Of a stretch of 64,000 nt of DNA, positions 58,037 through 61,000 are shown piece by piece. Source of the stretch: an uncultured Candidatus Saccharibacteria bacterium (lineage in GTDB: Bacteria > Patescibacteriota > Minisyncoccia > Phycocordibacterales > UBA1006); contig CAZROP010000001.1 in NCBI GenBank assembly GCA_964601935.1, positions 275,661 through 339,660 on the forward strand, in the 5' to 3' direction. Under the pieces are notes generated by a model that worked only from the letters and a program-made list of their open reading frames with translations, did no database searches and had not been told where the DNA came from. Numbering within the stretch: the stretch's first letter is position 1; each line of letters opens with the position of its first letter. Position numbers and translations under genes: made by a program.

Positions 58037-61000
58037 ATGGAATCAAGTTCATACACCAGTATACCAGCATCTAAAAGAGCGCAAGAAGAAGAACGCGTCA
58101 TGCGAAAGTGGCGCGATAGAAATATCTTTCACCAAACACTATCCAAAGACTCTCCTCAGGGTAACTTTGTATTTTACGAAGGACCACCAGGAGCAAACAG
58201 TGCTCCTATGATTCATCATCTTGAAGCACGTGCCTTCAAGGATATTATCCCTCGGTATAAAACGATGAGAGGATTTCATGTAGATCGTCGTGCGGGTTGG
58301 GATTGTCATGGGCTTCCAGTAGAATTGCAGGCAGAAAAAGAATTGGGGTTGAAGTCAAAAAAAGAAATTGAAACATACGGTATAGCGCAATACAACGCAT
58401 ATTGTCGTGACCTCGCATTTCGCTATACCAGTGTTTGGAATGATTTCACTGAAAGAATTGGCTACTGGGTTGATAATGATCGTGCGTATTACACAATGCA
58501 GAACTCATTCATGGAGTCCGCATGGAATATTGTGAGTCGTGCACATGAAGCGGGACATTTGTATAAAGGATATAAAATCCTACCGTGGTGCACACGTTGT
58601 GGTACGGGGCTGTCCTCGCATGAACTAGGTCAGCCGGGAGTATATGAGGACGTAAAAGATCTGTCGATATATGCAAAGTTCAAACTCATCCCAGGCCAAC
58701 TGATCGGTGATTGGGAAGTGACAGACAATACATACATTGTTGCATGGACCACAACACCGTGGACGTTGCCAGGTAATGTGGCGTTAGCAGTGAGCAATGA
58801 TATAGAGTACGCAGTATTCGAAAAGACTGATGAACCAGGCAATATATATATCACATCATTCGATTATTATAAAAGAACCGCAGGAGGAACTACCAGTGTT
58901 GAGGTGCAATATAATGAAAGACTTGTGAAAAGTGAGTGGATAATGGGAAGTAGTCTTGTCGGTATAAGATATGAACCTCTGTATCCATTCCTCTCTCAAA
59001 TTGCTAATGAAGAAGAATCTATAAAACTTGAAAATGCCTTCAAGGTATACGCTGCAGATTTTGTGACGACAACTGAAGGTACTGGTGTAGTGCATATCGC
59101 TCCTATGTATGGCACTGATGACTTTGACCTAGCTACAGAAAAGAACTTGCCCAAAGTTCATATCATAGATGACTCAGGGTGTTATCTGCCCCAGTGCGGC
59201 GACTTGTCAGAATTGTATGTAAAAGAGAAAAATGAAAAAGGTGGGGAAGTTGTCGGTATTAAGATTCTAGAGGACTTGGATAGTCGTCAGTTGCGTTTCA
59301 AAAAAGAAAGCTACTCACACAGCTATCCCCACTGCTGGCGATGTAAAACTCCTATATTATATTTTGCTCGTTCATCGTGGTATTTCAAAATGTCTCAACT
59401 AGCAGAAAAGATGGTAGAAATGAATGCAGGTATCAATTGGGAGCCGGATCATATAAAAGACGGGCGTTTCGGTGAATGGTTGCGTAATATCAAGGACTGG
59501 GCAATATCACGAGACCGCTACTGGGGCACTCCATTGCCTGTATGGGAAACTACTGATGGGATGCAGAAAGTCGTTATAGATAGTGTTCAAGCCCTGCGTC
59601 AATATACAAAGAAATCTGGCAATACCTACATAGGTATTCGTCATGGAGAGTCAGAAAATAATATATCGAATATATGGAACATGGACGCAGAGGTGGAATA
59701 CGGTCTGACCGAGATCGGTAGAGAGCAAGTACGTAATTCAGCCGAAGTTCTCCGCGATAAGGGGATTACCAAAATAGTTACGTCACCATTTGCGCGTACG
59801 CGCGAAACAGCAGGAATTATCGCTGATATTTTGGGTATTGAGGTGCAGATAGATGCGCGCTTGTCAGAGTATGGTGCCGGTGCCTTGTTCGAAGGGTCTA
59901 CCATAGATCACGAGTCTCGCTATGATTCTATGAGTGATCCTTATAGAGATAATTTATACGAAGGCGAATCTTTGCAGGATTTATTCATGAGGACGGGCGA
60001 GTTACTTTACGAGCTAGAGTCCGTATTCCAAGGAGAAACTATACTGATAGTGAGTCACATGAGCCCGCTTGTCGCGATGCGTTATCATAGTACAGCACCA
60101 CTAGAATCTCCGTATTCATATTACCGCAGAGAGGATACGGCTGGAATCAAGAACGCTCAAATAGTTGAATTACCATTTGTCTCTATGCCTCACAATGCAG
60201 AGTACGAAGTAGATTTGCACAAGCCATACATCGATCAGATATCACTCACCTTGCCTGATGGTGCAGAGCTGGTGCGCACGCCTGAAGTGATGGATGTTTG
60301 GTTCGATAGCGGGTGTATGCCATTGGCACAGGACCACTTTCCATTCGAGAATTCCGATCTGTTAGATCGGGGTGGTTATCCTGCAGATTATATTTCAGAG
60401 GCAATAGATCAGACGCGTGGCTGGTTCTATACATTAGTGGCAGTAGCTGCGCTATTGGATATGGAGGCACCATTTAAAAGTGTAATATGTCTGGGTCATG
60501 TTCTGGATGACACGGGGCAAAAGATGTCGAAGTCAAAGGGTAACACGGTCGATCCGTGGGAGCAGATACATAAGTATGGAGCTGACGTTGTGCGTCTGTG
60601 GATGTTCACCGTCAGTCAGCCAGGGGATTCAAAAAGTTACGATGAAAAGTCCTTGGCTGACTTACAGAACAAGTTTTTCACAATGCTAGAAAATTGTATA
60701 AGTTTTTACGAATTGTACAAAGAATCTGAAATAGGTGATTACCAGGCGCAGGCGCTGGAATCTAGTAGTATTTTGGACCAATGGATAATTAATCTATTAC
60801 ATAAAACAGGGTCAGAAGTTACAGGTTATTTGGATGAATATAAAGTATTTGAATCTTCTCGTCTGTTGCGTGAATTTGTGCTGGATTTGTCGCAGTGGTA
60901 TATTCGCCGATCGCGAGACCGAGTTCGCACAGACAGTAGAGACAAGCGTGATGCTCTCGCTACCATGAAATACGTATTTAGTGAATTCGCTAAATTGATC

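Follow-up and report, generated by a model that had tools for sequence, protein, structure and literature searches.

Why does an essential isoleucyl-tRNA synthetase (IleRS) carry a complete histidine phosphatase domain inside its catalytic body, and is that domain an enzyme in its own right? The question is raised by the ileS gene in a 64,000-nucleotide stretch of contig CAZROP010000001.1 (GenBank assembly GCA_964601935.1, forward-strand positions 275,661 to 339,660), which is called the window below. The open reading frame (ORF) at 58037–61585 on the + strand encodes a product of 1182 amino acids (aa). The initial annotation had named this product IleRS; our analysis confirmed the name and showed that the protein is a type-2 (eukaryote-like) IleRS. 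The gene is most likely the housekeeping type-2 IleRS gene of a Parcubacteria/Paceibacteria-type Patescibacteria bacterium. We consider it fairly probable that the protein is bifunctional: a housekeeping synthetase that also contains an active phosphomonoesterase for small molecules, the latter being a branch-1 histidine phosphatase domain nested at the tip of connective peptide 3 (CP3). The features of the gene are given below. Conservation figures here and throughout refer to 121 aligned proteins of the family.

58037..61585 (+): ileS, host of the nested phosphatase (ORF; TIGR00392; best PDB relatives IleRS2 8c8w and T. thermophilus 1ile)
58208..58219 (+): class I signature in the non-canonical form MIHH, aa 58–61 (motif scan)
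58643..59326 (+): CP1 editing domain, approximately aa 203–430, with WTTTPWTLPG and GTGVVHIAP..DDF intact (motifs; 8c8w alignment)
59498..59605 (+): CP2-3 linker (WAISRDRYWGTPLPVW) together with the N-terminal portion of CP3 (a beta-hairpin and a helix), aa 488–523, where the ancestral zinc knuckle has lost its first CxxC (motifs, 8c8w alignment, full-length model)
59606..60190 (+): nested His_Phos_1 domain, aa 524–718 (PF00300; 8c8w alignment; AlphaFold model, AF2; Foldseek)
59639..59647 (+): RHG motif, in which R535 and H536 (the nucleophile) are each 121/121 and G537 is 117/121 (alignment)
59795..59797 (+): R587, second arginine of the phosphate pocket, in the SPxxRTxETA motif (121/121; aligned with the PspA motif)
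59867..59869 (+): E611, predicted general acid, in the phosphatase-type motif RLxE...G..EG (at least 95%; aligned with the PspA region of the catalytic Glu)
60056..60058 (+): H674, second catalytic histidine, in the VSH motif (at least 95% of 121; invariant in alignments of 40 and 52 sequences)
60191..60313 (+): C-terminal portion of CP3 (PHN..DLHKPYID.., without the second CxxC) and the strand DVWFDSG leading back into the Rossmann fold (motifs, 8c8w alignment, conservation)
60521..60535 (+): KMSKS loop, aa 829–833 (motif; KMSKS in 120/121)
60776..61558 (+): anticodon-binding domain, aa 914–1057, and type-2 C-terminal domain DUF5915, aa 1094–1174 (Pfam Anticodon_1 4.9e-28, DUF5915 6.5e-12)

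The insert is a member of the histidine phosphatase superfamily, branch 1. The Pfam family His_Phos_1 (PF00300) matched aa 534–685 with an E-value of 6.6e-28 and a score of 98.1 bits, against a gathering cut-off of 21.7. The three hallmark motifs by which the domain had first been recognised were located in the protein as RHGESENN (aa 535–542), SPFARTRETA (aa 583–592), and IVSHMSPL (aa 671–678). The superfamily core of R535, H536, R587, E611, and H674 is present in full, and each of these residues, as well as N542, is conserved in at least 95% of the family. The AlphaFold model of the insert (aa 516–735, based on an alignment of 40 homologous segments) had a mean predicted local distance difference test score (pLDDT) of 92.6 and a predicted TM-score (pTM) of 0.90. 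The Foldseek search of the PDB with this model returned compact branch-1 phosphatases with a probability of 1.00, an E-value of about 1e-12, TM values of 0.6–0.7, and 21–28% identity. The top matches were Rv2419c (glucosyl-3-phosphoglycerate phosphatase, GpgP), PspA, the riboflavin-pathway phosphatase HFP (9mmh), CobC, Rv3214, TIGAR, and PhoE. True mutases ranked lower, with a root-mean-square deviation (rmsd) of 6–8 Å. PspA was also the best match in the PDB sequence search with the insert (4e-8), and a cap segment of about 30 residues lies between E611 and the GES motif, as in PspA. The Pfam match, the confident model, the Foldseek result, and the conserved catalytic residues together bear out the initial claim that a complete histidine phosphatase fold lies in frame within the IleRS.

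The small branch-1 phosphatases PspA (4ij5), Rv2419c (4pz9, 6s2q), CobC (6e4b, 6nru), PhoE (1h2e), and HFP (9mmh) have in common with the insert the fold, the size of about 200 aa, the RHG/R/E/H set, and the E...G..EG and GES motifs. The identity between them and the insert is only 21–28%, and they are free-standing proteins, whereas the insert is nested in another enzyme.

The insertion site was located by alignment to the Priestia megaterium IleRS2 (8c8w; E-value 1e-218). Query residues 15–523 aligned with 8c8w residues 11–477 and query residues 719–1090 with residues 480–851, which places the insertion point between 8c8w residues 477 and 480. The net insertion is one block of about 195 aa (aa 524–718, nucleotides 59606–60190) in a single loop. 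The initial annotation had described an insert of about 230 aa at 59560–60290. The insert was found there, but its length had been overestimated, and the range 59560–60290 spans the whole CP3 region as well as the insert proper. The blocks WGTPLPVW (aa 496–503, nucleotides 59522–59545) and DVWFDSG (aa 753–759, nucleotides 60293–60313) are 249 aa apart in the window protein. Only about 55 aa separate them in the type-2 reference 8c8w, fewer than the 70–100 aa that had been given as typical.

The host element of the insert is the CP3 subdomain of the catalytic body, a connective peptide of variable structure that lies between the CP2-3 linker (WAISRDRYWG in the window IleRS) and the second half of the Rossmann fold. 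CP3 has been defined previously, and the CP3 of T. thermophilus IleRS binds zinc (PMC7191050). The CP2-3 linker helps to form the pocket for the tRNA 3′ end (A76) and for reveromycin (PMC7955072). The hairpin beside the insertion point has the pattern CxxC...CxxC in 8c8w; the window protein has ETTDG and LPDGAE instead (59546–59560 and 60248–60268). All four zinc-knuckle cysteines are lost in 115 of the 121 insert-bearing IleRS, and the other six keep the zinc site together with the insert. The entry junction KKSGNxY stands before the first strand of the insert and the exit junction FVPLPHN after the last. Both junctions are short, conserved, and confidently modelled, with N529 and Y531 at the entry and F714 and P718 at the exit conserved in at least 95% of the family.

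All synthetic and editing motifs are retained in the aminoacyl-tRNA synthetase (aaRS) body. The ileS equivalog model TIGR00392 scored 832.2 bits against a cut-off of 621.4, and the insert divides this match into two stretches. Pfam annotated tRNA-synt_1 (PF00133) in two pieces with His_Phos_1 between them, together with Anticodon_1 and DUF5915. Of the two class I motifs, KMSKS is canonical and the HIGH position has the xxHH form. The variants at the HIGH position in the family included GIHH (57 members), ALHH (37), MLHH (11), and MIHH (3). The A/GXHH signature is functional in IleRS2 and is linked to mupirocin hyper-resistance (PMC10485003). The editing motifs WTTTPWTLPG and GTGVVHIAPMYGTDDF are present in the window IleRS, and the editing motifs are kept in at least 115 of the 121 members. 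The type-2 C-terminal tRNA-binding region is represented by DUF5915 (6.5e-12), and the structural match spans the C-terminal domains of 8c8v and 8c8w.

The full-length AF2 model had a pLDDT of 88.7 and a pTM of 0.80. The junction blocks scored 89–93 in this model, which suggests that the insert is docked on the synthetase rather than held by a floppy tether. In the structure search, the synthetase body superposed on IleRS2 and eukaryotic IleRS structures with TMt values of 0.78–0.89, and the search returned no PDB entry that spans the insert and the body together. The domain order (Rossmann, CP core, CP1, CP2, CP3, anticodon-binding, DUF5915) is shared with the type-2 IleRS of P. megaterium (IleRS2, 8c8u/8c8w) and T. 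thermophilus (1ile), and the xxHH signature is shared with the hyper-resistant IleRS2 subclades. The window IleRS differs from the P. megaterium and T. thermophilus enzymes in the 195-aa domain in CP3 and in the loss of the zinc cysteines. A 151-aa antisense ORF at 61087–61542 (−) lies wholly within ileS and is most likely spurious.

The architecture is widespread in the clade. The full-length protein was used as a query against 5.8 billion proteins, and the best 120 homologues were taken (NCBI, JGI, ENA, and Logan). These had 47–67% identity and lengths of 1123–1230 aa, and came from Parcubacteria/Paceibacteria-type Patescibacteria. PF00133 and PF00300 were found in 120/120. At least 141 GTDB species genomes carry the insert, and their titles include Paceibacterota, Paceibacteria, Nomurabacteria, Zambryskibacteria, Adlerbacteria, Taylorbacteria, and Parcubacteria. 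Many of the metagenome-assembled genomes (MAGs) from ENA among the carriers bear the label "uncultured Candidatus Saccharibacteria", as deposited. The ORF was bounded by stop codons on both sides at 64 of the 80 fetched loci, with a median length of 1165 aa. An independent Logan assembly (SRR13208906) has the identical protein on a contig that runs past the window and differs by one synonymous base in the gene. The GC content of the insert was 0.443 and that of the remainder of the gene was 0.429. We are nearly certain that the architecture is real and clade-wide.

The insert is less conserved than its host. Mean column conservation was 0.53 in the insert and 0.74–0.78 in the synthetase core, and the insert length ranged from 194 to 211 aa across the family. 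Outside the catalytic residues, the insert drifts to 35–45% identity. A catalytic set that stays conserved on such a drifting background is what maintained catalysis typically leaves behind. Many of the insert-bearing IleRS and ValRS (valyl-tRNA synthetase, described below) are named merely "class I tRNA ligase family protein" by NCBI, and some fragments are named "histidine phosphatase family protein". The insertion thus seems to degrade the automatic naming of an essential gene.

The conservation pattern makes it very probable that the insert is catalytically active. With the phosphatase domain nested at the CP3 tip, where relatives carry the zinc knuckle, the polypeptide would be bifunctional. 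By homology, H536 would attack a phosphomonoester and form a phospho-histidine intermediate. R535, R587, and H674 would hold the phosphate, E611 would protonate the leaving group, and the intermediate would then be hydrolysed. The substrate is probably a small molecule (a nucleotide, sugar, or acid phosphate) and not RNA or protein, because of the fold class, the E...G..EG and GES motifs, the PhoE/PspA-like cap, and the acidic surface. The isoelectric point (pI) of the insert is 4.7 and its net charge is −13. The family median pI is 5.7 for the IleRS inserts and 5.5 for the ValRS inserts. An RNA-binding role was considered from the electrostatics and is not supported, as the inserts are acidic. 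The roles suggested by the initial annotation, a phosphatase of nucleotides or alarmones or an activity related to proofreading, are speculative, and no result of the analysis ties the domain to editing.

The insert fell below the cut-off of every specific NCBIfam equivalog model. The scores were as follows.

dPGM_arch, NF038349 (small archaeal cofactor-dependent phosphoglycerate mutase, dPGM; best NCBIfam match): 82.6 bits, cut-off 225
RNase H/acid phosphatase, NF005567 (second-best match): 77.9 bits, cut-off 326
GpmB, NF002901: 64.6 bits, cut-off 261
PspA (phosphoserine phosphatase): 63.2 bits, cut-off 350
CobC (alpha-ribazole phosphatase): 62.8 bits, cut-off 162.9
SixA (phosphohistidine phosphatase): 26 bits, cut-off 74.5
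pgm_1, TIGR01258: 21.4 bits, cut-off 81.7

Membership of the insert in the dPGM, GpmB, PspA, CobC, and SixA families was rejected on these scores, all of which lie under the curated cut-offs.

The same domain family recurs in other synthetases. The insert alone was searched against 1.84 billion cluster representatives, which gave 6884 matches at E ≤ 1e-3 and 442 at E ≤ 1e-10. The best matches were mostly IleRS, followed by free-standing proteins of 170–210 aa and tandem proteins of about 420 aa, with 33–44% identity. Six IleRS showed other arrangements and were only 31–36% identical to the window IleRS. Two of them (P0251 and P0307) have a normal CP3 and carry His_Phos_1 copies after DxWFDS and after KMSKS, two (P0282 and P0320) have two tandem copies within CP3, and two (P0264 and P0346) have the domain in CP3 and at a second site. 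One other-site IleRS (locus L082) is located on a 1.06-Mb contig and probably belongs to a different lineage, because POR, purA, DAHP synthase, and an SLH protein are among those encoded beside it.

His_Phos_1 was also found in 73 of the best 120 ValRS homologues, in one to four copies (P0301, P0394–P0511). Where these proteins were named, they belonged to Peregrinibacteria or Gracilibacteria; the ValRS labelled Nomurabacteria and Magasanikbacteria among the same 120 had no His_Phos_1. ValRS P0301 has two copies and ValRS P0241 at least four. The position between WGxxIP and D(T/V)WFSS, which is homologous to the IleRS CP3 insertion, holds 76 of the 90 ValRS domain copies. These copies show almost no variation in RHG or in the second Arg. 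One ValRS subclade (P0433, P0437, P0447, P0448, P0450, P0451, P0454, P0459, and P0500) is of the RHG..R..S..N type, with the Glu changed to Ser/Ala and the second His to Asn, and its domain may be a pseudo-phosphatase or a phosphate-binding module.

The ValRS with nested His_Phos_1 from Gracilibacteria/Peregrinibacteria MAGs resemble the IleRS in the domain family and in its CP3 position in a class Ia synthetase. They differ from the window IleRS in belonging to another class within the candidate phyla radiation (CPR), in having one to four tandem copies, in that the domain nearly replaces CP3, and in the partial loss of the Glu and His. The ValRS domains are equidistant from the IleRS inserts and the free-standing proteins (about 33% identity; median best bits 73 vs. 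72), so sequence similarity does not decide whether the two kinds of insert have a common origin. The nearest-neighbour analysis of the other-site copies was equally uninformative on origin. Some CPR ValRS (P0411, P0492, P0461, and P0459) contain further Pfam domains, namely DUF559 (endonuclease-like, PF04480), HU (PF00216), and ABC_tran_CTD (PF16326). Domain accretion seems unusually frequent among the class Ia synthetases of these CPR lineages.

Does the location of the phosphatase matter? The same domain family is found repeatedly in class Ia synthetases, mostly in CP3 beside the linker that lines the A76/ATP cleft. This recurrence points weakly to a phosphatase selected for acting beside the class Ia synthetic site, as opposed to a random passenger. 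Its activity might be tied to the synthetic site, for example by the hydrolysis of AMP or another nucleotide-type phosphomonoester. Functional coupling of the phosphatase to aminoacylation is a tentative proposal, which we favour with low confidence. We speculate, with more doubt, that CPR class Ia synthetases repeatedly evolved a third catalytic site, an active histidine phosphatase at CP3 of the Parcubacteria IleRS and the Gracilibacteria/Peregrinibacteria ValRS and at further sites elsewhere, working in cis on something that the aminoacylation cycle produces or uses (AMP, another nucleotide phosphomonoester, or a phosphorylated tRNA end). If this were true, the in-cis phosphatase would couple tRNA charging to the nucleotide/phosphate economy or to tRNA quality control under a minimal metabolism.

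Three observations weigh against a bifunctional enzyme with an active and coupled small-molecule phosphatase. First, as the insert lies under every equivalog cut-off, no substrate can be transferred to it by homology. Second, a coupling of precise geometry is made less likely by the copy number of one to four and by the existence of several insertion sites. Third, the Glu is replaced in about 30% of the ValRS inserts and the second His is changed to Asn in about 11%, which indicates that catalysis is not universally maintained in the wider phenomenon.

The rival that survives best, although we consider it unlikely, is a hidden glycolytic enzyme. The insert would then be a divergent dPGM (or another central-metabolism phosphatase) that fills the phosphoglycerate mutase (PGM) gap noted in some Parcubacteria, and the IleRS would be a constitutively expressed carrier with no mechanistic link to aminoacylation. 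The best NCBIfam match of the insert is indeed the small archaeal dPGM model, and an acidic domain of the small-molecule type suits a metabolic enzyme. Several shallow Parcubacteria clades have been reported to be without PGM, and divergent forms were suspected (Jaffe et al. 2020, PMC7304191). The TIGR01258 threshold of that survey was 67.1 bits (PMC7304191), and the insert, at 21.4 bits, would have been overlooked. However, the scores for dPGM_arch, GpmB, and pgm_1 are far under the cut-offs given above. The structural neighbours of the insert are phosphatases, and the true mutases rank below them with their large rmsd. The mutase motifs of dPGM are ERHYG and HGNS, whereas the insert has E...G..EG and THGGP motifs like those of PhoE, CobC, and GpmB. 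The same domain is present in ValRS of MAGs labelled Gracilibacteria, and the sole complete curated Gracilibacteria genome is without glycolysis (PMC7304191). A hidden PGM also leaves the repeated capture by class Ia synthetases and the tandem copies unexplained. Were the domain such a cryptic enzyme of central metabolism, whether mutase or phosphatase, the gap in the metabolic reconstructions of Parcubacteria would be closed, and surveys based on thresholds of hidden Markov models would be shown to miss enzymes that sit within other genes.

We give less weight to a macromolecular substrate, which is improbable. In this case, the domain would remove 3′- or 2′-phosphates from damaged tRNA ends before charging, or dephosphorylate the synthetase or a partner, for example after the action of toxin kinases. 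The placement lends itself to such a role, because CP3 comes directly after the CP2-3 linker lining the tRNA A76 pocket (PMC7955072) and copies of the domain recur about the catalytic core in two enzymes that handle tRNA. That the domain can be joined to nucleic-acid enzymes is seen in the RNase H/acid phosphatase fusion of mycobacteria (NF005567). The superfamily also includes protein phosphatases such as Sts-1, PGAM5, and SixA, but the SixA model scored far under its cut-off with the insert. The strongly acidic character of the insert and of the family, together with the retained PhoE/PspA-like cap between E611 and GES, argues against a large substrate. We know of no RNA-end phosphatase in the His_Phos superfamily.

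A non-catalytic module, either a structural CP3 brace that replaces the lost zinc knuckle or a sensor of a phosphate ligand that tunes the synthetase allosterically, is about equally improbable. The loss of the zinc cysteines in 115/121 insert-bearing IleRS and the rigid, conserved junctions fit a brace. However, the six members that keep the zinc site and the insert show that it is not a simple replacement. The ValRS subclade that keeps the phosphate-binding RHG and Arg without the Glu and the second His fits a sensor. A structural or sensing role is plausible for that degenerate subclade. For the IleRS clade, the conserved general acid speaks against it, since all five catalytic residues, this one included, are kept in at least 95% of the IleRS while the rest of the domain drifts.

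An artefact (misassembly into a chimera, two genes fused by a frameshift, or a removed intein-like element), which has nothing in its favour except the a priori oddity of the architecture, can practically be dismissed, given the identical protein on an independent assembly, the uniform GC content across the gene, the spread over more than 120 protein clusters, with at least 141 species genomes as carriers, the stop-bounded ORFs at 64/80 loci, and an in-frame insertion in a single loop that lacks intein junction residues. An intein, which would have a HINT fold, Cys or Ser at its N-junction, and HN with Cys, Ser, or Thr next at its C-junction, was rejected specifically: the fold is His_Phos and not HINT, and the junctions read ..KKSGN|TYIG.. 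and ..PHN|AEYE.., with Ala or Glu as the +1 residue. The misassembly that the initial annotation had named as a possible undoing of its claim appears refuted as far as sequence data reach.

The reading of a bifunctional IleRS was compared with known systems. The mycobacterial RNase H/acid phosphatase (Rv2228c/RnhC, NF005567) likewise joins a CobC-like His_Phos domain to a nucleic-acid enzyme. It differs in that the fusion is end to end and the partner is RNase H, and the window insert scored 77.9 bits against the cut-off of 326 for this family. To our knowledge, the reason for the RnhC fusion is also unexplained. A curated precedent for an IleRS with an extra catalytic domain is ileS_w_GNAT (NF040702), in which the extra domain is an N-acetyltransferase. 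The window IleRS is not a member of that family (318 vs. a cut-off of 1999), and its extra domain belongs to a different domain family. NCBIfam has an exception model for IleRS with GNAT and none for IleRS with His_Phos.

A full-text search of 8 million papers and preprints, with subscription-only literature outside its scope, found no architecture combining an aaRS and a histidine phosphatase. Neither a phosphatase nor CPR sequences come up in the most relevant IleRS evolution papers, of 2023 and 2026. These results agree with the first impression that the feature is absent from characterised IleRS. The sequences and their automatic Pfam matches are already public; the architecture itself appears to be undescribed and uncharacterised. 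Bacterial synthetases are usually viewed as architecturally conservative, and domain accretion is seen mainly as something that eukaryotes do. Throughout a large CPR class, an essential synthetase has a whole enzyme built into its catalytic body. The presence of this design in a second synthetase, in another CPR class, speaks for selection over accident. Should the phosphatase turn out to act on a compound made or consumed at the synthetic site, aaRS would have a new activity beyond synthesis and editing.

The window otherwise resembles an ordinary segment of a CPR chromosome. It encodes adenylate kinase, methionine aminopeptidase, PBP1, RuvC, a sigma factor, RuvB, a normal 411-aa TyrRS, DnaE, a PilB-like ATPase, and PolA, with ileS and recO further along. 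No tRNA (ARAGORN) and no Rfam family (at the gathering threshold) was found in the 64-kb window. A PilB/GspE-type secretion ATPase (828 aa, 25975–28461, −) has an N-terminal MshEN domain. Four ORFs of 951–1356 aa had no Pfam match at E 1e-5 (28549–31404, +; 38430–41981, +; 42072–45227, +; 45875–49945, −), and a fifth large ORF (31457–34108) had only a weak match to the Rib domain. These large ORFs probably encode CPR surface proteins or proteins of unknown function. Directly upstream of ileS, a cluster at 51122–57731 comprises a TraG/VirB4-like P-loop ATPase (51122–53011), an NlpC/P60 protein (54037–56106), and a protein with a peptidoglycan-binding domain (56118–57731). The cluster may form a module for type IV-like secretion or for the remodelling of the cell wall.

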